64,000 nucleotides of DNA, taken from positions 8,976 to 72,975 of the forward strand of contig CAZFXN010000001.1 in NCBI GenBank assembly GCA_964523015.1, read 5' to 3'. This document shows, piece by piece, positions 1 to 17,103 of this stretch. The notes below the pieces were generated by a model. The model ran no database searches. It was not told the origin of the DNA and saw only the letters and a program-made list of their open reading frames with translations. How positions within the stretch are numbered: the stretch's first letter is position 1; each line of letters opens with the position of its first letter. Position numbers and translations under genes: made by a program. This DNA is from an uncultured Bdellovibrionales bacterium. GTDB taxonomy: Bacteria > Bdellovibrionota_C > UBA2361 > J135.

Positions 1-1
1 C

Positions 2-247
2 GGTATAGCTGATGGTGAAGTTTCAATTGAAGACCTAGCCGAACTTAAATCATCCACTAAGATAACTTTTCCTGTCAGATTTGATCATGAGTTAGCTAAT
101 GCTTTTGAGATCTCTAAACTTCCATCACTCGTTGCCATTGACAATTACGATCCAAAGCCAATTTTTTATCGAGGACCATTAGCAATTGAACAGATCTGGG
201 ATTTTATAGATTTCTCCCTTAAAAAAATGAAGGGGAATAAAAGATGA
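2..247 (+). CDS. C-terminal fragment of a thioredoxin-fold T4SS protein (TraF/TrbB-like), 5' partial
   Basis: Open frame from the window edge ends ...TFPVRFDHELANAFEISKLPSLVAIDNYDPKPIFYRGPLAIEQIWDFI, a thioredoxin-fold C-terminus with cis-Pro-like TFPV and a beta-strand. The stop overlaps the next ATG (ATGA). Context is the F-type tra genes. Confidence 0.35.
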   Translation, partial: GIADGEVSIEDLAELKSSTKITFPVRFDHELANAFEISKLPSLVAIDNYDPKPIFYRGPLAIEQIWDFIDFSLKKMKGNKR

Positions 248-1686
248 AAAATCTTGTACTAGCAATATTTATATTTTTAGGCATAACAGAAAGTGCTAAA
301 GCGCTTCCATATGAGCTAATGCCTCTAGAGCAGGAGATGAAAGACATCACTATCTCTGAGCTAGAGCAGAGCTCAAGTTATTCTAAGGGTAGTACTGTTG
401 GTACGCAAAATCGTGCAATCTCTCCCCGACTAAGACCAACCGAAAGTGCCTCCGGATATCTTCAACATGATGAGACTGATTTCAAATCTGAAACGTATCT
501 TCCATTTGAATACTTTGGACGTATTAACAAGGACAAAGTAGAGGAAGGATATTTAAACAGTATCGCTACACTTCAGGGCAGAACAGAGAATGCCCTTAAT
601 AGTGCTGGGGGCACCTGGTATCAGATGCTTATGTTTCAAGAGCCTACGTTAGCTGTTAGTGGAGCTGCCTTATTAAACATTAGTAGTAGCAAGATAGCTG
701 AGTATCAAAGAGATAGAGCAAACGAAATTACATTTAACGCGGCTCGTCCAGAAATTGCAAAAGAGATCATGGATGATTATGAACACTGCATGGCTTCTAA
801 CATAACGGGAAGTACCGCTAGCTCATTAATAGGTGGTTATCTGTTTGGGGGTGGTGGATTCGGAGGCAGTGTTGAGATGGCCAGAGAGATCTGTGAATCA
901 CAAGTATCAACTATTCAGTTTCTAGCTGCTAGAGGAGCAATGGGAATGAACGGTTGTGAGTGGCTATCAATAGTTATGTGGGGTCATCTCTCAATGGAGA
1001 TTCCGTTTAGAATGAGAGCACAATTTGGAGATGATGAAATCTGTCCAGCTGTTCATGAGACCTCTCCTGGCGGCCAATATATTGCTTATCAATTCTCAGC
1101 TGTTCCGCCGTCTTTTTCAACACGCCAAGTTTGGTACGAAGAGTATTCTAAAAGTGTATTAGATCTGCAGTATATATTGGAGCAAGCTTCAACAGATAAT
1201 GGAGGATACCTTTTAACGCCGTATGACCTGGCGACTATTAATATCCGCCCAGGTTTAAAAGCAACTCAGGCTTTAGTATCTGCAATTGAACAAGGGTTTG
1301 ATCCATTAAGAGATCGTCCAGAATTAGTCAACTGGTGGGCCAAAGAGAAAGCTAATGCACTTATCGATACTACCTGCAGTGAAGCACGAATTGCAGTTGA
1401 TGAATCTGCCTCCAGTCAAGCGACGGAAAGAGAGCGAAGACGATGGAAAGATAGAGTCAATGCTGTTTGTAGTACCTTATCAGAGCTTAAAAAGGAGATG
1501 GCTGAAATTACAAAGAATCAGGTGGTCTTTGAAAAGATCTTAACTGAAGGTGATAAGGCAGCTAAGAAATTCTCTCAAAGTGCTTTGGCGCAGGCCCGAT
1601 CAAATAAGCAAAGAGGAAGCGGTTCGCAAGGTACTTGGGCATTGGATGGTGGAATGTCACCAAAGAATGGAGCAAACGACTTTTAA
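244..1686 (+). CDS. traH: TraH-like F-type T4SS periplasmic protein
   Basis: 480 aa with N-terminal signal peptide (MKNLVLAIFIFLGITESAKA) and Gly-rich loop GGGGFGG. Size and position immediately upstream of a TraG-like gene match the F-plasmid traH-traG pair. Assignment by architecture and synteny, not alignment. Confidence 0.45.
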   Translation: MKNLVLAIFIFLGITESAKALPYELMPLEQEMKDITISELEQSSSYSKGSTVGTQNRAISPRLRPTESASGYLQHDETDFKSETYLPFEYFGRINKDKVEEGYLNSIATLQGRTENALNSAGGTWYQMLMFQEPTLAVSGAALLNISSSKIAEYQRDRANEITFNAARPEIAKEIMDDYEHCMASNITGSTASSLIGGYLFGGGGFGGSVEMAREICESQVSTIQFLAARGAMGMNGCEWLSIVMWGHLSMEIPFRMRAQFGDDEICPAVHETSPGGQYIAYQFSAVPPSFSTRQVWYEEYSKSVLDLQYILEQASTDNGGYLLTPYDLATINIRPGLKATQALVSAIEQGFDPLRDRPELVNWWAKEKANALIDTTCSEARIAVDESASSQATERERRRWKDRVNAVCSTLSELKKEMAEITKNQVVFEKILTEGDKAAKKFSQSALAQARSNKQRGSGSQGTWALDGGMSPKNGANDF

Positions 1687-1705
1687 CGGAATTGGGATTT
1701 AATTT

Positions 1706-3820
1706 ATGGCAACCGGCTCTACTGCGACACTAGTCTCAGCAACCATGCAATTAAGTGGAGAATTCAGCCAAGCCCATATCTTGGATGCGGTGGTTAATTC
1801 TCCAATCGGCAATCTTGCGATCTTTATCTATATAATTTCAGCTATCGGATTTTTTATCAGCGTTGCCTTTTTTCAAAATTATAAAATGGGTATCTGGCTA
1901 GTATTTGGCCCTGCTCTCTGGGATATCTCGGCAAATACAAGAGCAGAACAGGTAAATTTAAATTGGATGTATGCTGGGACGGTAGTACAAGATCAGGATT
2001 GGTTAACTCAATTTAGTAACCAAAGTCTTACTGATGACCTCTCTCTTGATAAGGGTCCTGCAACATTATACGTACTATGGGACTCTGTTGTTAGCGGAAC
2101 TGTACAGAATCTAACCGGTTTACTAGCTAAGATTACAAACGATCCTGCAACCAGGCTTTTTGCCAAAACTAATATTCAGGAGGGAATGCTTGGATCTATG
2201 ATCCAGAGTCCTGAGATAAGAGAGGCTGTACGGATCGCTATGGGCCCAGATTGTACTCCAATGGTCCCTGTTAGTAAGGGAAATGAACCAAAAGAGTGGA
2301 ATTTTTTAGAGATTGATGAACTAGAAACAGCACTTGATAACAGATTAGTTAAGGGAGTTCCAGAATCTGTTGTTCGAAAGTTATGTGAATACTCGATGGT
2401 CTATGAGATCTGGCAGTATGGTTCAAATTTAGAATTTGATCAGATCGATACAGAGCCGTGTGTTGTCAATCCATGGGGAGCTATAGGAACCTTTTCCCTT
2501 GGAAACTCAGAGAAATCAAGTTGTCTAGAATTTTCACGAACTACTTGGCAGGCACTTCAGGTAAGCGCTGAATTAAGATTACGAAATCTATATAAATCGT
2601 CAGGAGCAAACTCTTCAGGTGTTAGCGCACTCGGCAGAGATATCTTACCACAGTGGTCACTTGATATGTTGGCACAAGATGACTCTTCGTTAAAAAAACT
2701 TGTGGCTAGCTACATGCTCAAAAATGAGATGGATGATCTTAATTTTTTAAATCCTTCTCGCTCACTATCTGATGGGGGGAAAACTGAATCAGAGCTGAAT
2801 AAACCAGTGGAAGCAATTGTAGGTTGGCTTGAGAGAGAATCAGCTCAGAGCCAAGCTGTATTTTTTGCAAAATCAGTTCCCTACTTACAAGGGGCACTTC
2901 TTTATACCTTAGCAATTGTATACCCCTTTATCTGCATTATTATGCTGATACCTGGATTTCATACTGCAATGATCACCTGGATGGGTGCTTGGGCTTGGGT
3001 TAAGAGCTGGGATATTATGCTTTACGTCATAAGTCTCCTCTCCGGCATTATGTCAGAAAACATTCTGCATAAAGGGATGCTTCATAATAATATCGTGCAG
3101 AATGAATACGTGGGTACTGATGGAAGTGTCTCAAGCTTTGCAGATAATGTAGTCAGCAGATTGGAGGATATTAATTTTCTACATCTCGCAGTTTATAAAG
3201 CATTTGATGACGTGGATCCAAAGTTCGTTGAAGGTATTATTAACTATATCGTTGCGCTTTCGACAATCTCGATCCCTGCTATTACTGGTATATTCTTTTT
3301 ATGGGGCAGAGCATCCTCTCTCAGCTTATTCACTGATGGCATGAAAAATAAAGCAATGGATGCAACGTCAAGAAGAGCTGCTCAACTTCAAGATCAGTGG
3401 TTAAGAGATATCGAGATCGGACGACAACAAGAAGTTCGAACATCAAGTGCTGTAGGTGCTGCTTGGGGATCAGGTATCGGATTTGCACTAGGAAACTTGC
3501 CTGGCGCAATGGTTGGTACTGCTCTTGGTGCTGTTGCTGGGGAGAAATTTGGTTCTGTTAGTGCCGGATATGACCGTGGGCCAGAAGCAGCTCTATACGG
3601 AGGACGTCCGATGGTTGTCTCCTCTGGTGACTTACTAGATCCGTGGGAGAGCATGACTACTGCAGCAGGAGCCATGGTAATCCAGAAACATTTACTTGAT
3701 GCAACCGGTCAAGCTGAGGCTGATCCAGTATCAACCTATATAAATGGCCCAGATAGGTTAAGGCTAAATCAGAACCTACTCGGAAATAGAAGAAACTTTA
3801 TCTGGGGCGGATCAAGATAG
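1706..3820 (+). CDS. traG: TraG-like polytopic membrane protein (VirB6-like N-domain) of F-type T4SS
   Basis: 704 aa with multiple hydrophobic helices in the first ~550 aa and a Gly-rich C-terminal segment (GAAWGSGIGFALGNLPGAMVGTALGAVAG). It follows the traH-like gene with a 19-nt gap. Confidence 0.45.
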   Translation: MATGSTATLVSATMQLSGEFSQAHILDAVVNSPIGNLAIFIYIISAIGFFISVAFFQNYKMGIWLVFGPALWDISANTRAEQVNLNWMYAGTVVQDQDWLTQFSNQSLTDDLSLDKGPATLYVLWDSVVSGTVQNLTGLLAKITNDPATRLFAKTNIQEGMLGSMIQSPEIREAVRIAMGPDCTPMVPVSKGNEPKEWNFLEIDELETALDNRLVKGVPESVVRKLCEYSMVYEIWQYGSNLEFDQIDTEPCVVNPWGAIGTFSLGNSEKSSCLEFSRTTWQALQVSAELRLRNLYKSSGANSSGVSALGRDILPQWSLDMLAQDDSSLKKLVASYMLKNEMDDLNFLNPSRSLSDGGKTESELNKPVEAIVGWLERESAQSQAVFFAKSVPYLQGALLYTLAIVYPFICIIMLIPGFHTAMITWMGAWAWVKSWDIMLYVISLLSGIMSENILHKGMLHNNIVQNEYVGTDGSVSSFADNVVSRLEDINFLHLAVYKAFDDVDPKFVEGIINYIVALSTISIPAITGIFFLWGRASSLSLFTDGMKNKAMDATSRRAAQLQDQWLRDIEIGRQQEVRTSSAVGAAWGSGIGFALGNLPGAMVGTALGAVAGEKFGSVSAGYDRGPEAALYGGRPMVVSSGDLLDPWESMTTAAGAMVIQKHLLDATGQAEADPVSTYINGPDRLRLNQNLLGNRRNFIWGGSR

Positions 3821-3929
3821 AGTTGCAGTAATCTAACATGCTGATTTTAGGTAATATTTTAAAAACATTGAATGATCAGGGGATCAAACTCACTAATAGT
3901 ACTGATATGGTAAAGAGAAGTGTCAATTT

Positions 3930-4352
3930 GTGCCTATTATTAGATCTATTACATTAATAGAACGAGAGAGGAATGGTATGAGATATCTTTATTGCTTAAT
4001 CGCCCTAGTGTCGTTTTTGTCTATATCTTCTGCAAGTTACGCTGATGCGGATTTTGAAAATAGAACCCCCAAAGCCTCTGCAAAATTAGAAGGCGCCAGT
4101 GGTGAAACACTAGCTTCTGCGGTTGGACATTATGCTAGGTCCCGTTCCTTACTTATTGAAGCTATTAGAGAATTTGATAGGGCCAATAAAATTGCAAGGC
4201 CAGACTCCATATTAGATAGCGAAGAGTGGAGAAGCTCACTTATCTCAAGAGCTGAGGATCTTGAACGGATCCTTTCCCCGCAGCCTAGGGTTACCAAGGG
4301 CGGAGTAAAATTTGAAGCTGATACTAGGCTCTTAAATGTCACCAATAAGTAA
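3930..4352 (+). CDS. secreted hypothetical protein (T4SS locus)
   Basis: ORF with an internal Met at ~3978 giving signal peptide MRYLYCLIALVSFLSISSASYA and a charged soluble domain. It sits between the traG-like and traL-like genes. Confidence 0.4.
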   Translation: MPIIRSITLIERERNGMRYLYCLIALVSFLSISSASYADADFENRTPKASAKLEGASGETLASAVGHYARSRSLLIEAIREFDRANKIARPDSILDSEEWRSSLISRAEDLERILSPQPRVTKGGVKFEADTRLLNVTNK

Positions 4353-4433
4353 AGATCATACATAACTATTTGGAGTCACTCTGAAGTTTTACGAAATTAC
4401 AGGGATGAAATTGAAAGATTAAGTTGAGGGAAG

Positions 4434-4859
4434 ATGGATAACGGAGAGGTAATTGGAGCATTAAATGAAGACTGGAACTTTGCTGGTGCAAATCTGCCTG
4501 AGTGGATGTCTGGCTTTGTTGTTTTTCTCATTGCTTCAGAGATGTTCGACAAGATTAGTCGATCGATGCCGATCCTGCTGATGATGTGGATAGGCACAAC
4601 TTTTCTTTTAGCTGCTGCAAGAAAATCATTTCCTGATGAAGAGCGTGGCTTAAGAAATGCAGTCATGGTTGCACTTGGATTTATTCCAATTGGACTTCCA
4701 GCTCCATCTAAATTTTGTCCGATGTGGAGTGGCGCTCCAGTTAAAGAGTTAGGAGAGGATAGTCATTACCAAACTTTAAGATTAGATGAAGCAATTTTAC
4801 GGATTGATGACGGGGAAGAGCCAAACCCTACATACACTCCAAGAGTAGTGAGACAATAA
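4434..4859 (+). CDS. traL: TraL-like small inner-membrane T4SS protein
   Basis: 141 aa with two hydrophobic helices (FVVFLIASEMF; MMWIGTTFLLAAA). It sits immediately upstream of the traE-like gene, as in the F-type traL-traE-traK-traB order. Confidence 0.35.
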   Translation: MDNGEVIGALNEDWNFAGANLPEWMSGFVVFLIASEMFDKISRSMPILLMMWIGTTFLLAAARKSFPDEERGLRNAVMVALGFIPIGLPAPSKFCPMWSGAPVKELGEDSHYQTLRLDEAILRIDDGEEPNPTYTPRVVRQ

Positions 4860-4880
4860 ACAAGGTTATTATAGGTAAAT

Positions 4881-5525
4881 ATGGGAAAGGTTGCGGAGAT
4901 ATTAAGAGCTAGTGAACTGAGAGCCCCGCTCAGTGATAATGACACCATTCGATTATGGGAGAGTCATCAGGAGCAAGCCACACTCTGGCGCTCATTAACT
5001 TTAATTCAAGTTCCAATTACTTTAATCTCTTTAGTACTAGCTCTGGTTTTATGGAGCACAAGAAGCGTAACGCTGAATGTTCCAGCTAAACCATTGCCTG
5101 GAATTTATGCTGCTCAAGATATTCCCGATAGTGAATTTATTGATTTTTCAACTGACTACATTAATTTAATTGCAACATATCAACCAGCAGTTGCTCGTAG
5201 ACAGTTTGAAGAGGCTAGACGAATGCTTTGGAGCCAGATGATTCAGGCTTTTGATTCCGACATGATGGGAACAGAGCTAAGAGCGATCGAAAACACGAAG
5301 CGTACTCAGATCTATTTTGTTGATCCAACAAAAGTAGGAATTAAACGGGAAGGACGAAACGTAACCGTATCTCTTCTTGGTGATCGTTATAAAATTATTG
5401 CTGGCAAAGAGATGCCTGCAGTTAAAACTGAATTTGTAATTACAATGAATACAATTCCAAAGAATAAGTTTAATCCTTATGGAATTGTTGTGACCAATGT
5501 AGCTCTTAAAAATGTGGAGAAATAG
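4881..5525 (+). CDS. traE: TraE-like (VirB8-type) bitopic T4SS protein
   Basis: 214 aa with a single N-terminal TM helix (LIQVPITLISLVLALVLW) and a ~150 aa periplasmic domain. Position is between the traL-like and traK-like genes. Confidence 0.5.
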   Translation: MGKVAEILRASELRAPLSDNDTIRLWESHQEQATLWRSLTLIQVPITLISLVLALVLWSTRSVTLNVPAKPLPGIYAAQDIPDSEFIDFSTDYINLIATYQPAVARRQFEEARRMLWSQMIQAFDSDMMGTELRAIENTKRTQIYFVDPTKVGIKREGRNVTVSLLGDRYKIIAGKEMPAVKTEFVITMNTIPKNKFNPYGIVVTNVALKNVEK

Positions 5526-6342
5526 GATTTTACAAAAGGCAAGCTGTATGGAAACAAAAGTAAAATTGAAAAGTATTGCTCTCATATTCTTACTAGTTGG
5601 TATTGCGACTACCGCTCTAGCTAGGGATGTTGAGTATAACGAGGGCGATGGGGAAATCTCTATCTGGGTAACACCAGGAGAACCAACAAGAGTAGCATTT
5701 CCCGCTATGATTGCTGGTGGATATAAGCGCAAAGATTCAAGTCTTGTCCTTGATAAAAAGGATCATGATCTCATTTTATTTGGCAACCAAACTATCTCTC
5801 CAAATGGAGAAGCTTTTATTGTTCGACTTGAAGATGGACGCTCTTACTCAATTCGAGCTAAAAGAGCGAGTGCTGATAAACCTCGTGATGATGCGGTAAG
5901 TATTACTGACAGTCGTGGCTCAATAATTCTTTCAAAAGAGGAGGAAGAACCAACTTATAGAGAGAAAAGATTTGAGTATGCCCCGCCTAGTCAGATAAGT
6001 GGCTTAATGCGTGAAATGGTTCTGACATCTGAGTTTGGTAAATCAACGATAGCTGGATATCGAAAAAGTGAAAAGTATAGAGGACAAGTTGTACTTAGTG
6101 ACGGCACAATGTTGGCTACTATTGACACTATCTTTATTGGGCCAAATCTTTGGGGATATGTTTTAGATACAAAGAACTTATTAAATACAACACAGAAAAT
6201 TAATCCAGCATCCTTCAGACTTGATGGCACAAGAGCTGTTTCAGCAAGCAATTGGGAATTAACTCCTAAGCCATTTAATATTGAACAGCAGATTGCTGGA
6301 AAAGATTCAACAAAAATTTATATCGTAACTAAGGCACGCTAG
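5512..6342 (+). CDS. traK: TraK-like (VirB9-type) secreted T4SS protein
   Basis: 276 aa with a signal peptide (LKSIALIFLLVGIATTALARD) and a beta-rich domain. It overlaps the traE-like stop and precedes the traB-like gene. Confidence 0.5.
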   Translation: MWRNRILQKASCMETKVKLKSIALIFLLVGIATTALARDVEYNEGDGEISIWVTPGEPTRVAFPAMIAGGYKRKDSSLVLDKKDHDLILFGNQTISPNGEAFIVRLEDGRSYSIRAKRASADKPRDDAVSITDSRGSIILSKEEEEPTYREKRFEYAPPSQISGLMREMVLTSEFGKSTIAGYRKSEKYRGQVVLSDGTMLATIDTIFIGPNLWGYVLDTKNLLNTTQKINPASFRLDGTRAVSASNWELTPKPFNIEQQIAGKDSTKIYIVTKAR

Positions 6343-6352
6343 AAAAGTAAGG

Positions 6353-7528
6353 TTGCATATGAAACAAAAGATTAAAGATTACTTACTACTGCTACAAAAT
6401 GATCGGAAGACCCAGATCTTAACGGGCATTGTACTGGTTATGTTAGTGGCATTTGTGTTTAATTCTCCACCAACAAGGGCCCCACAAAAAGGACCTAAAG
6501 TAACTCAACTTGGAACTGGCGGAACAGGGACTAAAGAAGCTTATGAGGATCTTTTAAATGCGTTCTCTCGAGATCTACAAGTTACCCAGGATCAACTAAA
6601 AAAAGTACAGCAAGAACTAAAGGATAAAGACAAATCCTTCTCTGATTACGACGCTAAAACAGCAGCTATCTTTACTAAAATTCTTGAAAGAATGAATTCT
6701 GGTGAGATGGGAAGTTCTGGCGGGGTTAGTGGGGCTTATGCTCCAATTGATATAGACGGTAGTTCTAGTGCAATTGGAGCTTCTGGATCATTAGCACCTG
6801 GCTCACAGGAACTTGAGCCGTTTGGATTAGATCAATCAGATCCATTACCTCCTCCACCTCCTCCAAGAAACAGATCAGCTTTCGTAGCAGTTGGTGACTC
6901 AGTAAGAATTAAACTTCTTGCGGGCGTGAATGCTCCAACAGACGGAACTCCTTATCCTGTAGTTTTTAAACTAGATGATGACGTGCTTGGTCCTGATGGA
7001 TCTCGCTTGCCATTAGGAGAAGCAAGACTTATTGCCGCAGCCCAAGGATCGCTTAGTGATTCTAGAGCACTCTTTAGACTTACCGATCTTAGCATTAGAC
7101 TTCCTGATGGCCAAAGACGGACTTATAAAGTTGATGGATGGGTTGTCGGAGAAGATGGCATTCGTGGCATGAGGGGAAGGTTAATCGATTATCTTGGCAA
7201 GGCTCTTGGGGCAGCTGGTGCAATTGGTGCAGCAGAAGGGGCAGCAAATGCTCTTCAGGCTGCAAAAACAACTTCTGTTATCTCAGATGATGGAGGTCTC
7301 TCTAATATCGCCACTGGAGGTACTGCTGAATTTATTACTGCAGGTGCTCTATCCGGAGGATTAGGAGCATGGGGAGATATTATCAAGGATCGAATCGATC
7401 AGTTAGTACCACATGTAGAAGTATTGTCTGGCAGAGGAGCAACAGCAATATTTGCAAAATCTGTAGTTATTGATGGTCTATTTGAAGCTCTTGAGGACGA
7501 TAGCACTGCCTTTGGTTCATTAGATTAG
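6353..7528 (+). CDS. traB: TraB/VirB10-like T4SS envelope-spanning protein
   Basis: 391 aa with an N-terminal TM helix (ILTGIVLVMLVAFVF), a Pro-rich linker (DPLPPPPPPRNR) and a C-terminal beta domain (VRIKLLAGVNAPTDGTPYPVVFKL...DGWVVGEDGIRGMRG) typical of VirB10/TraB. The track start is TTG at 6353; ATG at 6359 has a better RBS. Confidence 0.55.
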   Translation: MHMKQKIKDYLLLLQNDRKTQILTGIVLVMLVAFVFNSPPTRAPQKGPKVTQLGTGGTGTKEAYEDLLNAFSRDLQVTQDQLKKVQQELKDKDKSFSDYDAKTAAIFTKILERMNSGEMGSSGGVSGAYAPIDIDGSSSAIGASGSLAPGSQELEPFGLDQSDPLPPPPPPRNRSAFVAVGDSVRIKLLAGVNAPTDGTPYPVVFKLDDDVLGPDGSRLPLGEARLIAAAQGSLSDSRALFRLTDLSIRLPDGQRRTYKVDGWVVGEDGIRGMRGRLIDYLGKALGAAGAIGAAEGAANALQAAKTTSVISDDGGLSNIATGGTAEFITAGALSGGLGAWGDIIKDRIDQLVPHVEVLSGRGATAIFAKSVVIDGLFEALEDDSTAFGSLD

Positions 7529-7545
7529 TTTTTTGTGGAGTTGTT

Positions 7546-8010
7546 ATGAAAAGTAATAAGAGTGGGCTTTTAAAAATTGTGATGGTTGCTACAGCATTAT
7601 TCATCTCAGGGTGTACAGCTATTGGAGATAGATTAAATCCATTTCAAGAGGAGCCAGATCCAATTGCTTTCTTGGGAGATCGAGATGATCACGCTCTAAA
7701 CGGAACAAAAGCGAAAGAAGAGACCGCCAGAACTGCCCTTGAACAGATGGCTAGCTATAGAAGGACGAACTTCCCAGAACCGGTACATCCAGTTATACAA
7801 CCAGCCGTTGTAAGACTTATGTGGATACCGGATCACTTAAACAAAAGCGGGGATCTAGTTCCAGACCACTACTATTATTTAAAAGTTCTTAGCGATCGCT
7901 GGGCAGTACAGGATGCCTTTGAGCTCGAGTCACAACTTGGTCCAAACAAGGATCCAACAAATTTACCTTACGTATATAGCGATGATCGAAAAACTATAAG
8001 AGGACGGTAA
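7546..8010 (+). CDS. traV: TraV-like outer-membrane lipoprotein
   Basis: Lipobox LFISGC. C-terminal VRLMWIPDHLNKSGDLVPDHYYYLKV resembles the TraV signature (RvWvaPw.D..GdLh...yvY). Confidence 0.55.
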   Translation: MKSNKSGLLKIVMVATALFISGCTAIGDRLNPFQEEPDPIAFLGDRDDHALNGTKAKEETARTALEQMASYRRTNFPEPVHPVIQPAVVRLMWIPDHLNKSGDLVPDHYYYLKVLSDRWAVQDAFELESQLGPNKDPTNLPYVYSDDRKTIRGR

Positions 8011-8026
8011 TATTTATTAAGTTTAG

Positions 8027-8596
8027 TTGAATATGATTACTGAGAACAGAAAAACATATATAGCAGCAATAAAGGTAGTCGTACTCTTGGGATGCATTGT
8101 CTTTCTCGTTAGCTGCTCAAGCCAAAAACCTCCTGTTGCGAAAACACCACCTTTATATGACACGGCAAAAAGACAGTTAGCTCCTGAGCCGGTTTATAAT
8201 AGACTGCGCTGGGTCCATTTACCTGAAGTTATTCCTTACAAGGACAATAACAAGGACAAGAAAAAAATCTCTAAGAGCCAAGACTCACTAGAAGACAGGC
8301 CAATGATTTTTCCAATTATGAATTTTGATCTCAAAGATGGAACATTAGCTGAAGCTGCCCAGATGATTGGGGCTAGTGCCAGTTATCGTAGCTACTGCGA
8401 TCCATCAATCGCAGACAAACGACTATCTTTAAATATGCTTGGCACAATTCATGAGTTAGCCAATAGTATTTCAAGGTTAGTTGATGTTGAGATTATAATT
8501 GATCATTCTGCTAGGGAAGTTAGGTTTATGCCCCTAGGCGTAGAGAATAAATTAAGGTTTTTTGATAATACGGTAAGTGAATATGAGCATAGATAG
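8027..8596 (+). CDS. T4SS-associated lipoprotein with secretin-N/TcpQ-like C-terminal domain
   Basis: Lipobox LVSCSS. The C-terminal segment LAEAAQMIGASASYRSYCDPSIADKRLSLNMLGTIHELANSISRLVDVEIIID has an STN/N0-like pattern. It overlaps the traC start by 20 nt. Confidence 0.4.
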   Translation: MNMITENRKTYIAAIKVVVLLGCIVFLVSCSSQKPPVAKTPPLYDTAKRQLAPEPVYNRLRWVHLPEVIPYKDNNKDKKKISKSQDSLEDRPMIFPIMNFDLKDGTLAEAAQMIGASASYRSYCDPSIADKRLSLNMLGTIHELANSISRLVDVEIIIDHSAREVRFMPLGVENKLRFFDNTVSEYEHR

Positions 8597-11351
8597 GTTA
8601 ACACGGGCTCGACTTTATAAAGATGAAGCTCTGTTTAATAAACTACTCCCTTTTGCCAGATATGATATCGAGCAAGGTGTGTTTGTACACGCCGATGCTT
8701 CATTATGGTTGATGTACGAGTTGGAGCCTCTCCTTATAACTGCCACCTCTGATGCCTCTGCTTATCAAACATGCTCTAGTATTCAAGAGCTCTTAGATTC
8801 ATTAGATGTTAGTATTAGTGTCCAGTTTAATTGGGTGGTAACGTTCGACATTGAAGGTCTACTTCAAAAGGCACTCGAGCAGTACCCAGTATCCGGCGTT
8901 GCTGGTTGGATGGCTCGTCGCTGGAACAGAATGATGAAAAAGGCAGCTCGTAGCTCTTTTATTCATCAACGACCTAGAAAAATGCGACTTATCCTTTCTT
9001 TTAGACATGATCCACCATGGAGCAAGGGAAATATATTTCAAGAGCTTAAGAGAGCTTTTTCTATCCTGATTAAAGGTAATGTTGGATTCTCTGCAGATCA
9101 AAGACGAGCAGAGTATCTAAACTACGCCAACAAATTTAAAGGAGAGATTGAGGGTAAAGTATCTCGACTAAGAGACCTTGGTTTCTATCCAAAAAAAGTT
9201 GATGGGCAAGCTTTAATTGATACACTCTATCCGATACTGAATCGACGAAGCGTTAAAGGTGGTAAGTTTAAAAAAGGGCGCACCTCCTCAATCCCTGTGC
9301 CAGTTTTTGATCCGCTTGATTTATTATCAAATCAACTCTCTGAAACTGCTGTTGAGCATCCGCAAAATGGTATTATCAAAAAAGATGGTAGAGTTTTTAG
9401 AACTGTCTCGATGGTAAAATCTCCTAATCAAGCTTTTCCTCTGATGATTGCTCCGCTTCAATCGGCGCCATATGAAAATATTATAAGTGTTACTTATTCA
9501 AAAGATCCGATGCAAGCTCAGATCAAAAAACTTGATACGCTTGATAGCACCCTTGGTCTTCGTGAATTTACTAGCATGGGTAGAGGTAATCAAAAGATTC
9601 AACATCAGATTAGATCTATTAGGGCCGCAAGAGAGAGCTTATATAATAACTCCACTCAAATTGTCCGATTAGGTATCCATCAAACATTTATCTGTCAAAA
9701 TGAACAGGAAGCTATCAGAGCAACCTCTGAGGCAATGGCAGCTTTTCCTCAATTAAATGGTGCTCGTGGCATGGTTCACGAAATTGCTGACCTTGGTGTA
9801 ATGATCAATTCATTACCGGGATGCTATGAGCCAGCACTTGATGGACGTGGATGGACATCTGTATTGCAATCTTCACGCGCAGTTAGAATGCTTCCTTTAT
9901 GGGGCAATTGGAAGGGCAGTAAAGGCTCACTCTTTCTCCTACCAAATCTTTGGAACCGTGAATTAGTAGGATTCGATCTATTCGACTCTAATATTGCACC
10001 TAACGTATTAATAAGCGGAGTATCTGGTGCTGGTAAGAGTTATCTCCTTAACTTTCTTCTGATAACTCTTAATAGAGGGCACTATTCAACTCTCGCAAAT
10101 GGAATGACTGTTGAACGTCCACCAATTACCTTCGTCTTTGACAAAGGAATGCCTAATCAACCGTGTGGATTTGAAAAGATTGCTCATCTATTTGGTGGAA
10201 GAATATACGAAGCTACCCCTTCTAAAGCACCAGCCATGAACTTCTTGGCTCGCTTAGGAGACTGCCCTCACGATAACACCAACGAAGATTTCAAAGATCT
10301 AGTGGATATCTGCTCTGACATAGTTGCAGATATGGCTTCTGAAAATAATCGTCCGTTATCACGACTTCAGGTAGGTGATATTATCACTGCTCTTTTAGAA
10401 GCCCATAGAATCTATAGAGCTGGTCCAATGAAGAGGCAGTTTATTTTAAGTGATGTTGTCGCAGTTCTCCGTGCTCCAAAGAGAGTCGATGAGGATGAGG
10501 CTACAGCTATGCGTCGTGTCGAGATCGCTCTTTTAATGTCTGAGTACTATGGAGAGGGTACATATGCTAGATTCTTTGATAGACCAGGAGCATTAAGACT
10601 AAAAGAAAGATTTATCGTGTTCGATCTTAAGGGATTAAGTAGAAATCCTGACCTACAAAGGGTATTTTTAAAGATCGCTATGCTCTGGGCTGACGAGGTC
10701 ATGAACGATCCAAAAGAGCTCGACTCGAGAAAGGTTCTTGTGTTCGACGAAGCTCATGATCTTATCGGTAAAACATCTTCAGGTGTTATCGAATCAGCTT
10801 TCAGACTTTATCGTAAGAGAAAAGGTATTGTTATTGCCGCTTCTCAATCTGGTGAAGATTTCTATGTTGGTGCTGGTGGACAGGCTATCGTACAAAACAG
10901 CGCGCATAAGATCTTTTTGAGACAAGATCCAAGTAAGTTTCATTTAACAGCAAAAGCGTTCAATCTAAATGAACAACAGAGTGATGTAATTATGCGTTTA
11001 CGTACTATTAAAGGTGTTGAATCTCAATTTTATCTTCTCTCAGATATCGGAGAAGCCGCCCTTGTTCTACCTCTTGAGCCGGCGTACTACTGGGTTAGTA
11101 CAAATAATGGTGACGACAATCAATTATTTCAATCAGTACTTCAGGAATGTAATGGTGATTTTGCAGCAGCACTTGAGAGAGTAAGTATTATAGCTCCAAG
11201 TGGCGCAAGTGCGTTTGCACAGTACAGAGCTGCTATGCAGCAGGCTCAAGAGCAATCTCGAAATGGCGAAAATTCCGTTTCAAAAACAATTAATACCGCT
11301 TTAGGTCAAAATACAGGTTCAAATTCTATTATAAAGGAGCAGCAAATATGA
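8577..11351 (+). CDS. traC: TraC/VirB4-family T4SS ATPase
   Basis: 924 aa with Walker A GVSGAGKSYLLNFLL and Walker B VLVFDEAHDL. The length fits F-type TraC. Confidence 0.85.
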   Translation: MNMSIDRLTRARLYKDEALFNKLLPFARYDIEQGVFVHADASLWLMYELEPLLITATSDASAYQTCSSIQELLDSLDVSISVQFNWVVTFDIEGLLQKALEQYPVSGVAGWMARRWNRMMKKAARSSFIHQRPRKMRLILSFRHDPPWSKGNIFQELKRAFSILIKGNVGFSADQRRAEYLNYANKFKGEIEGKVSRLRDLGFYPKKVDGQALIDTLYPILNRRSVKGGKFKKGRTSSIPVPVFDPLDLLSNQLSETAVEHPQNGIIKKDGRVFRTVSMVKSPNQAFPLMIAPLQSAPYENIISVTYSKDPMQAQIKKLDTLDSTLGLREFTSMGRGNQKIQHQIRSIRAARESLYNNSTQIVRLGIHQTFICQNEQEAIRATSEAMAAFPQLNGARGMVHEIADLGVMINSLPGCYEPALDGRGWTSVLQSSRAVRMLPLWGNWKGSKGSLFLLPNLWNRELVGFDLFDSNIAPNVLISGVSGAGKSYLLNFLLITLNRGHYSTLANGMTVERPPITFVFDKGMPNQPCGFEKIAHLFGGRIYEATPSKAPAMNFLARLGDCPHDNTNEDFKDLVDICSDIVADMASENNRPLSRLQVGDIITALLEAHRIYRAGPMKRQFILSDVVAVLRAPKRVDEDEATAMRRVEIALLMSEYYGEGTYARFFDRPGALRLKERFIVFDLKGLSRNPDLQRVFLKIAMLWADEVMNDPKELDSRKVLVFDEAHDLIGKTSSGVIESAFRLYRKRKGIVIAASQSGEDFYVGAGGQAIVQNSAHKIFLRQDPSKFHLTAKAFNLNEQQSDVIMRLRTIKGVESQFYLLSDIGEAALVLPLEPAYYWVSTNNGDDNQLFQSVLQECNGDFAAALERVSIIAPSGASAFAQYRAAMQQAQEQSRNGENSVSKTINTALGQNTGSNSIIKEQQI

Positions 11352-11656
11352 AATCTTTAATTTTAACTCGAATCTTTCAATCTTTTTGTGTAGTGTTGAT
11401 AGGAATACTGACTGGTTGTGCAGCAGTTAATCCATTTGTACATACAAAAACTGTTTACCGTGAAGTTCCTATTAGTGGACCAAAGGCTGATGTTCCTCCT
11501 GGAGTAGTTGAATATGTTTGGGAAGAGCCTATGGTCGATGTTGTTGACGTGCCGCCAGGATTAGATCCTGAAGGAAGATATTATAGACCTGGTCATCAAG
11601 CTGTAGTTGAAGTTCGCCAAGGTAGATGGAGACATTACAAACTGGAGAATAACTAA
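11348..11656 (+). CDS. small lipoprotein
   Basis: Lipobox ILTGCAAV. ATGA overlap with the traC stop. Confidence 0.4.
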   Translation: MKSLILTRIFQSFCVVLIGILTGCAAVNPFVHTKTVYREVPISGPKADVPPGVVEYVWEEPMVDVVDVPPGLDPEGRYYRPGHQAVVEVRQGRWRHYKLENN

Positions 11657-12059
11657 GTATAGGAGGTTTATTATGGGAGTTCTCTCAGCACGATCTTTTG
11701 TTGCACCGATACTAGATAAGAAAAATCTAATTGCCATCGTTCTTATTGCTGTATTCTTTGCTGTCTATAGGCTTTCAGGGGGCTCTATTGAAACTGGTTC
11801 AAATCAAAGTCGCTCAAACTTAAAAGTAGCACCAGTAAGTGATTCATTTTTCGATCAGATGACTGAATCAGAGTCAATCTCTCCAATTTCAGATCTTAAA
11901 AAGATTCAAGGGAATGAATCCGCTAGGCCAACCAAAAGGAAAGCTGCCTCAAGTGATCTACTAGATGATATTTTGGTTGATAGGAAACCTAAGGAGGAAG
12001 CCCCTACTGGATCAAACTCCCAGCTTGATGATATCGAAAGGAGTCTTGGATTACGTTAA
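11607..12059 (+). CDS. hypothetical bitopic membrane protein
   Basis: Likely true start is ATG at ~11673, preceded by the strong RBS TAGGAGG. N-terminal TM helix LIAIVLIAVFFAVY. Confidence 0.4.
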   Translation: MKFAKVDGDITNWRITKYRRFIMGVLSARSFVAPILDKKNLIAIVLIAVFFAVYRLSGGSIETGSNQSRSNLKVAPVSDSFFDQMTESESISPISDLKKIQGNESARPTKRKAASSDLLDDILVDRKPKEEAPTGSNSQLDDIERSLGLR

Positions 12060-12073
12060 TTTAAAATTGTTAT

Positions 12074-12604
12074 ATGATAGAGGGACAGATTACATTCAAT
12101 CGAAGTTGGCGCTCTCAATGGCAACGCATGATCGTTTTCTTTGTTCTCTCTGGAATAAGTATTTTTTTGTCCTCATATTTTCCTGAAAGCATCATAAGAG
12201 GTCGCTTATTTACCATCGCTGGCGAAGCATTTTTTTTGAACCTTCCTCTATTTAGTTTTTTACCTTTGTACGGATTAGTTAATTTAATGTTGCCGATATA
12301 CGATGCTAGATTTACGATTGATAATCGTGGTCTTGAATCTCGGATAGGAATATTGTCTCTTAATCAACGAATTGTAAAGGTTCGGTATGAAGACATTCGC
12401 AGCCTTGAGCTCAATCAAACTTTACTAGATCGCGGTATTAACGTCGGTGCTATCTCAATTGGCAGTGCTGCAACAAGTACCATTGAAATTGTCTTTGACG
12501 GACTAGTTGAGCCCGTCGAGATTAAAAATCTTATACAACTAGAAAGAGATTCAAGGTTACGTAAAGCGTCATCTGATGAGAAAAAGATTCAGGCAGCGCT
12601 ATAG
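12074..12604 (+). CDS. membrane protein with bacterial PH (bPH_2/YdbT-like) domain
   Basis: Two N-terminal TM helices followed by a domain matching the bPH_2 pattern (RFTIDNRGLESRIGILSLNQRIVKVRYEDIRSLELNQTLLDRG...IEIVFDG). Confidence 0.5.
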   Translation: MIEGQITFNRSWRSQWQRMIVFFVLSGISIFLSSYFPESIIRGRLFTIAGEAFFLNLPLFSFLPLYGLVNLMLPIYDARFTIDNRGLESRIGILSLNQRIVKVRYEDIRSLELNQTLLDRGINVGAISIGSAATSTIEIVFDGLVEPVEIKNLIQLERDSRLRKASSDEKKIQAAL

Positions 12605-12621
12605 TTTTTTGGAGGTATTTT

Positions 12622-13689
12622 ATGAGGTTTGTTTTTAAATCTGCCATAATGGCAAACTATCTGTCAGTAGTCCTGTTAGCGATCCTGATAAGTACATTAA
12701 TTATTTCCAATTCTGCTAAGGCTGATAAGGTCGTAGAAAATCTTAAAGATAAAATCTCAACTCTTAAAGCTAGCGTAGAGGGATCTGATACGAGCGATCG
12801 TGATTTTAGTGCCGAACAGGAAGAGTTCGACCGCATGAGAGAGCAACTCCTTGCTGCAGAAAATGAAATTATAAAAGGGGAAACCAAGAAATCATTAAAT
12901 CAAGCGACTGTATCTGCTGATTATGAATATAAAAAGGAATATCAAAAGGAAGCAAAACTACCTAAAAACGATGATAGCTTTACGGAAGATCTTGATGATT
13001 CCTTAGAGAAGGATGCTAGAGCTGAGATGGCTAAAAAAGCAATCGACAGTACCTTTCAAGAGAATGAAGAATTAAAAGCAAAGTATCAAACTGCACTTAC
13101 CCAACTAGCTGCTAGAAACAAAGAATTGACAGCTCTAAGATCAGAGAAAACTTCTGTTACATCTGAGTCAAAAGTATCTAGAGATAAAATTGCATCCTTA
13201 CAAAAAGAGCTTCAAGGAGCAAAAAATAAACTCCTGGTTAGTGAAGCAGAGGTGGAAAGATTATCCGCACTAGCTGGATCCGGAGCTAAACATGCTAGAC
13301 TCCCTGCTCCTGCTACTGGACGCTCTTCAGTTTACTCAACTGCTAATAGTAACGTACAGACAACTTCCATTAAGCCTGAAACTTCTGATCTAACTGTTTT
13401 AACAGTGGTTGCTAGCAAAGCATACCTACGAACTGGTCCTGGAAAAGATAATTCTCCACTAATGGAGGTACGAAGCGGTACTAAACTAGCTGTAGAAGAC
13501 AGACAGGGAAATTGGTTTAGAGTGACAACGCCTACTGGCACACGTGCCTGGATCGCTTCCGAAGTAGTTGCATTTGGACCGAGCAGTACTGCTCGTCCAT
13601 CCCAAACTGTAAAAATTAAAGCTTCAAGTGAAAAAAATGATCAGATCGAAGAAAAAGCGTTTGAGCTTATTAATAAGCATTCTCGCTAG
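12622..13689 (+). CDS. secreted coiled-coil protein with C-terminal SH3b domain
   Basis: Signal/TM at the N-terminus, a long heptad-rich region (EEFDRMREQLLAAENEI...LQKELQGAKNKLLVSEAEVERL) and a C-terminal SH3_3-like segment AYLRTGPGKDNSPLMEVRSGTKLAVEDRQGNWFRVTTPTGTRAWIASEVV. Confidence 0.5.
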   Translation: MRFVFKSAIMANYLSVVLLAILISTLIISNSAKADKVVENLKDKISTLKASVEGSDTSDRDFSAEQEEFDRMREQLLAAENEIIKGETKKSLNQATVSADYEYKKEYQKEAKLPKNDDSFTEDLDDSLEKDARAEMAKKAIDSTFQENEELKAKYQTALTQLAARNKELTALRSEKTSVTSESKVSRDKIASLQKELQGAKNKLLVSEAEVERLSALAGSGAKHARLPAPATGRSSVYSTANSNVQTTSIKPETSDLTVLTVVASKAYLRTGPGKDNSPLMEVRSGTKLAVEDRQGNWFRVTTPTGTRAWIASEVVAFGPSSTARPSQTVKIKASSEKNDQIEEKAFELINKHSR

Positions 13690-14173
13690 TCTTTTACTAT
13701 TAACGATTGGGTTTCCTAATTTGCCAATCATTGCAGCCCCTAAATTTCCTGGGGATGCATTGAGTACATTTGTTTTTCCACTTTTTGCACCAAGAAAATC
13801 TAGCCCCTTTGGCGAGCGTAAGCATCCGATACTTCGTAAGGTCCGCCACCATGCTGGAATAGATCTAGCTGCCCCTAAGGGAACCCCTATACGTTCGATT
13901 ATGAGTGGTACTGTAGTGTTTGCTGATGACTATGAGGGGTATGGCAAACTAATTACTATTCGACATAATGATGAGCTTACAAGCCACTATGGGCACTGTG
14001 ATAAGATTAAAGTTGAAGTTGGTAAAAGAATAAAAGCAGGTCAGATTATTGGGACAGTAGGTGAAACAGGGCTTGCTTCTGGACCGCACCTTCATTTTGA
14101 AATACGGATAAAAGGAAAGGCTTACAATCCTGAACTCCTTATCCCAGAGTTAAATTCTGAGGCTAAGGGATAA
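13628..14173 (+). CDS. M23 family (LytM-type) peptidoglycan endopeptidase
   Basis: Signal peptide, HAGIDLAAPKGTPIRS (HxxxD metal site) and GYGKLITIRHNDELTSHYGHCD...GPHLHFEIR (HxH motif). It overlaps the upstream gene by ~55-62 nt (GTG 13628 or ATG 13637). Confidence 0.8.
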   Translation: MKKMIRSKKKRLSLLISILASLLLLTIGFPNLPIIAAPKFPGDALSTFVFPLFAPRKSSPFGERKHPILRKVRHHAGIDLAAPKGTPIRSIMSGTVVFADDYEGYGKLITIRHNDELTSHYGHCDKIKVEVGKRIKAGQIIGTVGETGLASGPHLHFEIRIKGKAYNPELLIPELNSEAKG

Positions 14174-14458
14174 TCCTGATTGGTTTCAACTAGTTAGTAG
14201 CCTACCTAGAACTCTGCTAACATATCACCGTATGCAACTAAGAGGATGATTATCCCCATAACATTAGTAATAAAAATGGGACATCTGCCCAACGTGAGTT
14301 GTCGCCAAATTTTATTTTTTTAGGGTGCTTTTTAATATCCCAAAAGGTTATAACTTTGGTTACCTGCCTAGGATGTAAGATTGCAACCTATTAAAGATAG
14401 TATTTGGGGGCAATTCATAAGTAAGCATCTGTCGAAATAAATTAATATAGAAAATATA

Positions 14459-14902
14459 GTGAAAAAACTAATTGGAGTTACTATGAATGAAGTTAATTCT
14501 CTTTTACAAAAAGTAAAGGGAAGCTTTCTATCTACTGGTCAATATATTGGGGCTGTATTTTATGCACCTACAAGAGGCCAGAGTCAGATTGCTCTTTTCT
14601 TACTTGGAGTTATTATCCTATCAGGCGGTCTTACAATCCATGCAATTGCTCAAGGTGATGTGGGATCAGACCTCGTAGGTGAATACAATGACGAGCGTGT
14701 TTCTGAGGCCGTTAATAGAATCTTCGCTTATATCGAAGGTTCCTTTGGAGCCTTAATCATGGTTGCTGCTGGTTTAGGAGCAATTATGGCGGCTGCGTTC
14801 GGACAATATAGAGCTGCTTTAGGATTACTTGTTGTAGCGGTTGGATCATTTATCCTTCGCTCTCTTGTTGGAACATTCTTTAACACAGAGACAATTCAAT
14901 AA
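14459..14902 (+). CDS. T4SS pilin-like protein, paralog 1 (TrbC/VirB2/TraA-type architecture)
   Basis: Long leader with a TM helix ending AIAQ, then a ~85-aa region with two hydrophobic helices rich in small residues (GSFGALIMVAAGLGAIMAAAFG...GLLVVAVGSFILRSLVGTFFNTETIQ). Likely true start is ATG at 14483. Confidence 0.5.
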   Translation: MKKLIGVTMNEVNSLLQKVKGSFLSTGQYIGAVFYAPTRGQSQIALFLLGVIILSGGLTIHAIAQGDVGSDLVGEYNDERVSEAVNRIFAYIEGSFGALIMVAAGLGAIMAAAFGQYRAALGLLVVAVGSFILRSLVGTFFNTETIQ

Positions 14903-14940
14903 CGACAATCCAGTAATCAAAAGAGCTTGATAAGAGCTCT

Positions 14941-14970
14941 AAAAGGGACCTTTAGGGGTCCCTTTTATTT
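14941..14970 (+). terminator. rho-independent terminator after pilin paralog 1
   Basis: aaaaGGGACCtttagGGGTCCCtttta: 6-10 bp GC stem followed by a T-run. A second hairpin agagct..agctct lies at 14921..14939. Confidence 0.7.
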
Positions 14971-15031
14971 TGTCCCCTTTTTATTTTTTCATTATTGACG
15001 GTCATACAGTGATAGTCGTATGATTGATCTA

Positions 15032-15087
15032 ATGTAGCATTAGCTACATATTTATCTAAGCGTTTATCTAAGCGTTTATCTAAAGCG
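15032..15087. repeat. 7-bp-arm palindrome (atgtagc-atta-gctacat) followed by 3 tandem copies of tttatctaa(a)gcg
   Basis: Direct reading of 15032..15049 (palindrome) and 15051..15087 (12-nt unit x3). It lies ~30 nt upstream of the OMP gene start. Confidence 0.8.
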
Positions 15088-15115
15088 GACCTTATTAAAA
15101 TCAAGCGGAGACCGT

Positions 15116-15943: not shown

Positions 15944-16157
15944 ATAGTTCTTGATTTATAACTACCTAATTTGTCAGTTAAATATCATCCCCTAACAGGA
16001 TTGATAAACTAAGTCACATATACCTTAAAACCACACATAACACTGCTCATCAAGGTGATATGTCCAACTCTAGCTAGTTCGTATCGCATCAAGTTCTCAC
16101 CAGGTTTCTTTCTCGGTTTTCAACAAAAAAAACGTTAATTTAAACACGGAGACGACA

Positions 16158-16589: not shown

Positions 16590-16616
16590 TAATTGGGTGA
16601 TACTGTGCATAAAAGT

Positions 16617-16653
16617 GAGGTTAGTCTACTGATAAACCTCTCTTTTATATTTT
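16617..16653 (+). terminator. putative terminator after pilin paralog 2
   Basis: gaggtt...aacctc stem followed by tcttttatatttt. The loop is long, so prediction is weaker. Confidence 0.4.
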
Positions 16654-16717
16654 AAATGATCTATTAGCGATATATAACAGTTGAATAATTTCAGCCCTAA
16701 GTTAGAATAGTACTATT

Positions 16718-17068: not shown

Positions 17069-17103
17069 GTATTTCTTTATCTCGCTATCATGATCTTTCA
17101 AGA

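Follow-up and report, generated by a model that had tools for sequence, protein, structure and literature searches.

A probably chromosomal, vertically inherited type IV secretion system of F ancestry, with its own coupling complex, in an uncultured Bdellovibrionota bacterium

F-type type IV secretion systems (T4SSs) count as conjugative, the exception being the DNA-release island of the gonococcus (gonococcal genetic island, GGI). A stretch of 64,000 nucleotides from an uncultured Bdellovibrionales bacterium (assembly GCA_964523015.1, contig CAZFXN010000001.1, positions 8,976 to 72,975 of the forward strand; hereafter the window) opens with a run of F-type tra genes in which an initial annotation had found neither a relaxase nor a coupling protein. 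The locus therefore raises the question of whether these genes are one end of an ICE (integrative and conjugative element) or a rearranged chromosomal apparatus, perhaps put to another use. Our analysis points to a T4SS of F ancestry that is probably fixed in the chromosome and vertically inherited, has its own coupling complex and belongs to an uncultured Bdellovibrionota host (labelled Oligoflexia/Bdellovibrionales). The gene set comprises an envelope core, an inner-membrane platform, the TraC ATPase, periplasmic assembly factors, an SH3 and an M23 protein, pilins and a coupling module, the last seen in relatives. The window holds about two thirds of this roughly 26-kb system, and the remainder probably lies upstream. 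We infer that the system does not mobilise itself and is neither an ICE nor a plasmid.

The co-directional gene series described earlier at 244-11351 is real and longer than was thought: a single plus-strand array occupies 2-17068, running on beyond the end of TraC at 11351. The Tra labels were tested against Pfam and NCBIfam, where nearly all hits fell below the curated thresholds, and by hhalign comparison of family alignments, made of orthologues in related loci (given here as L numbers), with the canonical proteins of annotated F-type plasmids; 83 family members were scanned against Pfam. The array up to the gene that follows TraC reads:

2-247, plus strand: last 81 codons of a gene for a TraF/TrbB-like periplasmic protein of thioredoxin fold; their frame-2 translation is identical to the C-terminus of L001:1807-2772
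244-1686, plus strand: 480-aa secreted protein with a signal peptide, in the place of TraH, with the TraF-like gene before it and TraG after it; positional label
1706-3820, plus strand: TraG_N/VirB6-like polytopic membrane protein (704 aa; glycine zipper at the C-terminal end; E 5.6e-6 against PF07916, short of the gathering score)
3930-4352, plus strand: small secreted helical protein of conserved position, whose gene opens the traL-traC operon in every case
4434-4859, plus strand: putative TraL/VirB3-like small membrane protein with a hydrophobic core, always between the preceding gene and TraE; positional label
4881-5525, plus strand: TraE, bitopic, VirB8 class (PF05309, E 2.4e-4)
5512-6342, plus strand: TraK, VirB9-class outer-membrane core component (TIGR02756, E 2.5e-4; hhalign 63% and 50% to canonical TraK)
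6353-7528, plus strand: TraB/VirB10 with a TrbI domain (PF03743, 55 bits, cut-off 35; PRK13729, E 6.6e-8; hhalign 98.9%)
7546-8010, plus strand: TraV lipoprotein (lipobox LFISGC; PF09676, E 3.7e-3; hhalign 70%, an alignment that takes in the C-terminal TraV motif)
8027-8596, plus strand: second lipoprotein, 189 aa, lineage-specific (lipobox LVSC; in 13 loci it stands between TraV and TraC, at 27-60% identity)
8577-11351, plus strand: TraC, F-type VirB4 ATPase (TIGR02746, E 6.6e-60; PF11130 and PF19044 above their cut-offs)
11348-11656, plus strand: third small lipoprotein with a TraV-like C-terminal motif (lipobox LTGC), after TraC in 12 loci

TraC and TraB have strong profile support, and TraK, TraV, TraE and TraG_N have moderate support; across the families, PF05309 was matched by eight TraE members (best 3.1e-8) and PF07916 by two TraG members (best 9e-8). 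These six of the names proposed earlier thus stand on profiles, while TraH (244-1686) and TraL (4434-4859) drew nothing from Pfam, NCBIfam or hhalign and, like TraF, are putative assignments by position, with size and topology in agreement for the first two. In F and SXT the place between a TraF-like gene and TraG belongs to TraH, and the small membrane protein that precedes TraE is TraL; the two labels follow this order. Orthologues of the 480-aa protein (42-48% identity) hold the same position in L005, L006, L007, L019 and L021. The reading of the first codons as the end of traF/trbB agrees with their identity to the L001 gene and with weak PF13905 Thioredoxin_8 matches in the TraF-like family (best E 3.9e-4). 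Equivalents of TraF, TraW, TrbC, TraN, DUF4400 and S043 found no support in hhalign, whose profiles are thin for these comparisons as they are for TraH and TraL.

TraC scored 203 bits against TIGR02746, its best VirB4 model (equivalog cut-off 567), 44 against the model of mating-pair formation class G (MPF_G) and 21 against TrbE; its Walker A (GVSGAGKS) and Walker B (VLVFDE) motifs are present. Membership of MPF_G, the ICEHin1056 type, was rejected on these NCBIfam scores. The F-clade TraC ATPase and the TraK-TraB-TraV outer-membrane core are those of MPF_F, and TraC, TraB, TraK, TraU, TraV, TraE and TraG_N together would place the system, judged from sequence, in the F lineage and not in MPF_G, MPF_T or MPF_I. 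More than 120 metagenomic clusters contain a TraC 66-86% identical to that of the window, and among 72,556 plasmids there was no close match and no TraC above ~23% identity.

The 3930-4352 protein (32-68% identity, directly 5′ of the TraL-like gene in 12 loci) found no family in Pfam, NCBIfam or hhalign, and no family match was found for the 8027-8596 lipoprotein, the C-terminal half of which looks secretin-N0/DotD-like by eye. The 11348-11656 lipoprotein aligned with TraV at hhalign 42% over 25 columns; with the former lipoprotein it flanks traC, so that two extra lipoproteins border the ATPase gene.

We next turn to the coupling protein. The reported absence of TraD, relaxase, TraN, TraU and TraW holds within the window, where tblastn likewise found no type IV coupling protein (T4CP), but in the closest relatives a T4CP and TraU are encoded directly 5′. 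A contig search with the 480-aa protein in the TraH position retrieved two short contigs of metagenome-assembled genomes (MAGs) labelled "uncultured Bdellovibrionales", both with a divergent upstream operon for a 668-aa protein (P668) and a 718-aa protein with PF12696 TraG-D_C. The latter has TIGR03743 SXT_TraD as its best NCBIfam match (E 1e-16), followed by NF041447 TrbC (E 9e-14), and aligned with TraD at hhalign 87% over 309 columns; its sole PDB sequence match was DotL (E 5e-12), in the Walker-A region only. Walker A (AKTGVGKT) and Walker B (LVVIDE) are both intact, and the protein is as conserved as TraC (65-82% identity) and tightly linked to the system. A T4CP with both Walker motifs belongs to the machine, and the premise that there was none is not supported.

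The relative with long DNA, a complete layout and the closest TraC (L092, 86% identical to the window) shows how the modules join. Behind genes for UDP-glucose dehydrogenase and an ABC transporter stands the divergent operon P671-T4CP-X173, then, in the forward direction, X238, TraU, the TraF-like gene, the TraH-position gene and TraG, followed by the 3930-like gene and the TraL-like gene and then on from TraE through TraC to the pilins. In the closest relatives generally, X211-TraU-TraF-like lies directly 5′ of the genes seen in the window, with the divergent P668-T4CP-X170 operon beyond it and UDP-glucose dehydrogenase and ABC-transporter genes further out. The upstream 355-aa protein resembles TraU (hhalign 77%, 223 columns) and shares the motif CA(S/G)AWGxIYPxxxH, with a terminal CC common; X211 may be the TraW equivalent by its position. 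The TraU-like protein of L001, used as a metagenome query, found nothing. A T4CP (P0124) and a 664-aa P668 homologue (P0257), 79% and 56% identical to their L092 counterparts, were found on an NCBI contig of 140,959 bp, and the contig that carries the window's TraC (P0001) is also 140,959 bp long; both lie outside the window. The "missing" coupling protein and TraU are thus a window-edge effect, and calls of "no coupling protein" made at a window edge are unreliable.

The setting of the genes is chromosomal. The remaining 47 kb of the window encode RibBA, IspG, RsmE, RadC, glycosyltransferases, an SDF transporter, M16 peptidases and two-component proteins, and no integrase, tRNA or Rfam match was found in the window. 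Housekeeping genes also flank the system in relatives (UDP-glucose dehydrogenase, Kup, ABC, isoleucyl-tRNA synthetase (IleRS), FtsJ and Tgt); in the closest complete relative they lie on both sides, 1-5 kb from the outermost T4SS genes. A search for an island boundary by composition gave no break: GC content, GC at third codon positions and codon usage of the T4SS genes are indistinguishable from those of the flanks.

A metagenome scan with the TraC alignment yielded 71 loci, and the contig records of related loci are labelled marine, activated sludge and microbial mat. In the commonest layout, the leftward operon P668-T4CP-X170 diverges from a rightward one that runs from the 3930-like gene through TraL, TraE, TraK, TraB, TraV, a lipoprotein, TraC, a lipoprotein, in some cases a bPH protein, SH3 and M23 to the pilin, and the TraU-F-H-G block is elsewhere. 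In the window's subclade this block sits between the T4CP operon and the traL-pilin operon. The non-canonical gene order noted at the outset is real and amounts to a subclade-specific juxtaposition of modules; SXT-type systems also keep traFHG apart. One genome (L009) has the T4CP operon alone, between IleRS and histidine kinases, and in another, more distant one (L045:9995-12703, Ga0308389_1000011; TraC 52%) traC is on its own, with gyrA/pepA on one side and polA/icd on the other. The sole other gene at this L045 site is an unrelated 413-aa cytoplasmic open reading frame (ORF) upstream.

Downstream of the system, 7-8 loci have in common a kinase-like protein of 750 aa, IspG, a protein of 179 aa and Tgt, and homologues of the first three are present at 22.8-31.3 kb of the window, with no match for Tgt. 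These flanks are kept across genomes in which TraC is only 67% identical. Identity to the window is 62-74% for TraC and 62-69% for IspG, and the pairwise identities of the two proteins correlate at r = 0.97 over 21 pairs from seven genomes, a comparison that is no phylogenetic test and whose pairs are not independent. The system genes are all intact, and the ATPases are under strong purifying conservation. Housekeeping flanks, uniform composition, synteny, co-divergence of TraC with IspG and the lack of a plasmid match together speak against a recent origin from an ICE or plasmid, and they support the earlier suggestion of a rearranged chromosomal F-like apparatus.

No relaxase domain was found in the window ORFs scanned or in the flanks of relatives. 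Of the marks of a conjugative element, only the T4CP was found, outside the window; a relaxase, an integrase with att sites or a replicon, and signs of horizontal transfer were not. The absence of a recognisable relaxase, integrase or TraN, taken with vertical inheritance, argues against self-transfer, and because there is no recognisable relaxase, the idea that the machine has been re-purposed may still hold.

Two further proteins accompany the T4CP. The P668 gene always lies directly 5′ of the T4CP gene, and its product has two transmembrane helices (residues ~24-46 and ~125-147) and a cytoplasmic domain of ~500 residues with many invariant arginines and the invariant motifs LGxxxNGRLF[YF]SGxR, GLAC, FPQLxARxxLHS, RQWxE, CPHE and DEVEL. 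It matched nothing in Pfam (51 members), NCBIfam or PDB sequences, and its conserved columns contain no invariant tyrosine, HD dyad or HHH motif. A P668 profile search of 1.84 billion representatives returned 282 clusters at 50% identity, uniform in architecture. The other protein, X170, is a cytoplasmic protein of ~160-173 aa always encoded after the T4CP (L007:12184-12696, L009:12513-13001, L011:12563-13042, L092:12407-12928); it has the near-invariant motifs GGLWATxRAFLYGVESLDENVI and CWLRIVTGRSEEERRRIKLGPRDL, matches no family and is a possible adaptor or chaperone in the coupling complex.

P668 shares its gene position with two known proteins, MobH (in the order mobH-traD-small-DUF4400 of four F-type plasmids) and DotM; in Legionella nomenclature the icmP (dotM) gene precedes icmO (dotL). 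Identity with MobH (MOBH TraI_2) was rejected at the sequence level, with an hhalign probability of at most 0.2% and neither a Pfam match nor an HD dyad or HHH motif, and identity with DotM is unsupported, no PDB sequence or fold match having been found. The topology and arginine richness of P668 would nevertheless fit a DotM-like membrane adaptor better. A nuclease role is kept in view because P668 shows a fold resemblance, only a weak one, to the HD superfamily, and MOBH relaxases are HD-domain enzymes, some of them membrane-associated, with HD and alternative 3H (HHH) motifs (PMC6736028).

In the 450 bp 5′ of P668, aligned with MAFFT for 12 loci, no convincing conserved inverted repeat or oriT-like block was found. 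Three related loci (L039:5060-5463, L040:5105-5495, L011:7550-7928) have a short (C/A)AGCTATTCTGTA motif in the promoter region from which P668 and the traL operon diverge; it may be an operator, and it is not kept in the window's subclade.

The array continues behind the third lipoprotein as follows:

11607-12604, plus strand: two small membrane proteins, one of 150 aa with no assigned family and one of 176 aa with bPH_2 (PF03703, E 1.5e-8)
12622-14173, plus strand: coiled-coil and SH3b protein (PF08239, E 2.3e-11), then an M23 (LytM) peptidase (PF01551, E 5.4e-36)
14459-14902, plus strand: pilin-like gene 1, VirB2/TrbC-like (leader and two hydrophobic helices, from sequence and paralog alignment), the last gene of the operon
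14940-14967, plus strand: strong intrinsic-terminator-like hairpin (12-bp stem, then a T-run) that ends the operon after pilin 1
15116-15943, plus strand: outer-membrane beta-barrel of the Phenol_MetA_deg family (PF13557, E 7.9e-22), between the pilin paralogs
16158-17068, plus strand: pilin-like paralogs 2 (16158-16589) and 3 (16718-17068), 70% and 51% identical to pilin 1

The two small membrane proteins occur in most, not all, relatives. The SH3 and M23 pair is kept between TraC and the pilin gene in at least ten loci and is a candidate peptidoglycan-remodelling pair of the T4SS. As listed, the SH3 (12622-13689) and M23 (13628-14173) ORFs overlap by 62 nt; the GTG start of M23 is probably set too far 5′, and a later start would abolish the overlap.

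Pilin-like genes downstream of traC, as had been proposed, are present as three paralogs between 14459 and 17068, with an invariant C-terminal two-helix core. PF04956 TrbC/VirB2 was weakly matched by two pilin family members (E 4e-4), and an AlphaFold2 model from a three-sequence alignment (pLDDT 50) predicted a leader helix and two long helices; a sequence search against solved pilins gave no match, and the TraA-type propilin feature is absent, the pilins having no hhalign similarity to TraA. Relatives mostly have one pilin gene, after M23 and without the barrel; L019 has two. The barrel is specific to the window, with no homologue among the related loci examined. The hairpin at 14940-14967 is the top-scoring terminator site across 1-17500.

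Further into the window, the N-terminus of an 873-aa protein at 28732-31353 weakly resembles protein kinases (E 2e-5 to PF00069). In eight related loci a homologue (27-29% identity to L039) is kept beside the T4SS/IspG region, and the protein could be functionally linked or merely syntenic. Two paralogous ATPase genes with AAA_14 and DUF4143 (26233-27450 and 46973-48142, both minus strand) stand ~20 kb apart in housekeeping surroundings. A 319-aa protein at 36095-37054 has four bacterial thrombospondin type-3 (TSP3) repeats (E 4e-29) and is predicted to be a calcium-binding surface or secreted protein.

Taking these parts together, TraK, TraB and TraV with the extra lipoproteins would form the outer core, and TraE, TraG, the TraL-like protein and TraC an inner platform that polymerises the VirB2-like pilin. 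The SH3 and M23 proteins would open the sacculus locally, and the machine would become a pilus-bearing channel. The T4CP with P668 and X170 would choose substrates and hand them over to the TraC-energised channel, with contact-dependent delivery into another cell. In F and VirB systems pilus biogenesis can do without coupling proteins, and the retention of this T4CP at TraC-like conservation argues for substrate transfer and not for a mere pilus. As to the substrate, protein effectors for prey or host cells are a serious candidate that falls somewhat short of being probable; DNA, somewhat less likely, is possible but doubtful, and the rest of the probability goes to some other substrate.

Several points weigh against a chromosomally fixed, non-conjugative system. 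No effector, signal or target is known for the machine. When MobH, F TraI, integrases and canonical F proteins were run by tblastn over 748 kb of family loci, not one hit resulted, a weak negative here because even the family's own TraG, TraE and TraL are invisible to BLAST; a relaxase gene could lie at another place in the genome, or P668 could itself be one. TraN and TrbC were not found in the same 748 kb, and there was no clear TraW or TrbC, again a weak negative given how divergent these proteins are. The T4CP linkage in the window's own genome comes from relatives and from the equal contig size of 140,959 bp; the TraC/IspG pairs are non-independent, as said; and the taxon names of relatives are taken from MAG labels only.

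In its boldest form, the favoured reading of a domesticated chromosomal system would make the locus a host-encoded T4SS class that has not been described: one of F lineage, domesticated early in a Bdellovibrionota clade, in which a DotL-like ATPase, P668 and X170 replace the relaxosome and effectors pass into prey or host. We hold this only tentatively. Rather unlikely, in our view, is a DNA-handling T4SS in which P668 is a new membrane-anchored nuclease or relaxase, an analogue of MobH, and chromosomal DNA leaves by conjugation or GGI-like release. The P668-T4CP-small protein order does mirror that of mobH-traD in the four F-type plasmids, SXT_TraD is the top NCBIfam match of the T4CP, MOBH relaxases are HD-domain enzymes that can be membrane-associated (PMC6736028), and P668 is rich in invariant arginines. 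Yet P668 has no sequence or profile similarity to MobH (0 of 51 members with a Pfam match) and lacks the HD dyad, the HHH motif and an invariant tyrosine; its two true transmembrane helices are unlike known relaxases, its family is closed (282 clusters, one architecture), and no conserved inverted-repeat block stood out 5′ of its gene.

That the genes are part of an ICE, or its decaying remnant, with a relaxase/integrase module beyond the DNA examined, is very unlikely. F-type T4SS genes accompanied by a T4CP normally serve conjugation, the left boundary in the window's genome was not seen directly, and the DUF4143/AAA_14 gene pair hints at mobile or defence content. The initial annotation had offered one end of an ICE with its DNA-processing module upstream, but what lies upstream in relatives is X211-TraU-TraF-like, P668-T4CP-X170 and then housekeeping genes, with no recognisable relaxase or integrase. 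Housekeeping genes on both sides within 1-5 kb, flanks kept at 67% TraC identity, co-divergence with IspG, the absence of a compositional signal, modules parted by core genes in other genomes, and intact genes with strongly conserved ATPases all stand against it. Least likely of all is an organelle for pilus display or adhesion only, a surface filament for attachment or motility without translocation, which the three pilin paralogs, the adjoining outer-membrane barrel and the failure to find a TraN-type mating-pair stabiliser might suggest, but which the linked T4CP, conserved like TraC (65-82%) with intact Walker motifs and dispensable for pilus biogenesis elsewhere, argues against.

Compared with known systems, the machine is closest to the MPF_F conjugation systems, above all their SXT/R391-IncA/C-R27 branch. 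TraC is nearest the F-type VirB4 model, the order TraL-E-K-B-V...TraC is the same, the F-specific TraU, TraG_N, TraV and TraE are present, the traF-H-G block stands apart and the pilin gene is not 5′ of traL, both as in SXT-like plasmids (traA follows traV in the SXT type), and the T4CP is nearest SXT_TraD. It differs in being chromosomal and vertical, with TraC ~23% identical to any plasmid TraC; MobH, TraN, TrbC/TraW, DsbC, the S26 peptidase (TrhF) and DUF4400 are not recognisable; the pilin is VirB2/TrbC-like and not TraA-like; there are extra lipoproteins; the SH3 and M23 pair replaces the SLT transglycosylase; and a lineage-specific P668 precedes the T4CP.

The coupling module recalls Dot/Icm and IncI TrbA-TrbC. 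The T4CP matches DotL (E 5e-12) and the IncI TrbC/DotL-type NF041447 (E 9e-14), and, as with DotM-DotL, a protein with N-terminal transmembrane helices and a helical, arginine-rich cytoplasmic domain is encoded directly 5′. Dot/Icm, domesticated from the IncI lineage, is likewise chromosomal, non-mobile and of conjugation descent; here, however, the apparatus is F-type and not I-type, P668 has no DotM sequence or fold similarity, and no DotN or IcmSW homologues were identified.

The GGI also uses an F-like apparatus for something other than classical self-transfer, namely release of single-stranded DNA. It is, unlike the present locus, a horizontally acquired island with recognisable Tra proteins and a bona fide TraI_2 relaxase, and that TraI, whose gene lies beside that of TraD, is a MOBH enzyme with an HD domain, atypical and associated with the membrane (PMC6736028). 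Among bacteria with a life on or inside other cells, obligate intracellular ones have chromosomal F-type tra genes in the Rickettsiales amplified genetic element (RAGE) and the Parachlamydiaceae island; these resemble ICEs in having integrase, relaxase (TraA/TraI) and TraD, and they often decay, whereas the system here is intact and co-diverges with its host. Its dispersal among core genes, in L009 and L045, resembles that of the scattered rvh (Rickettsiales vir homolog) T4SS, which is P-type and not F-type.

The searchable literature contained no description of this system and nothing relevant on T4SSs in Bdellovibrionota, Oligoflexia or Silvanigrella. What appears here is a core-like, intact, host-co-diverging F-type system; its lineage is widespread in the environment and belongs to a phylum known for its predators. 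P668 and X170 are defined as two orphan families tied to a T4CP, candidates for substrate receptors or a DNA-processing enzyme. If confirmed, the system would be an independent domestication of conjugation machinery and a candidate contact-dependent weapon or feeding device of uncultured Bdellovibrionota. To our knowledge, the T4SSs so far known to translocate proteins all descend from the P/VirB (MPF_T) or the I/Dot-Icm (MPF_I) lineage; if the effector reading is true, this would be the first effector-translocating system of MPF_F descent.

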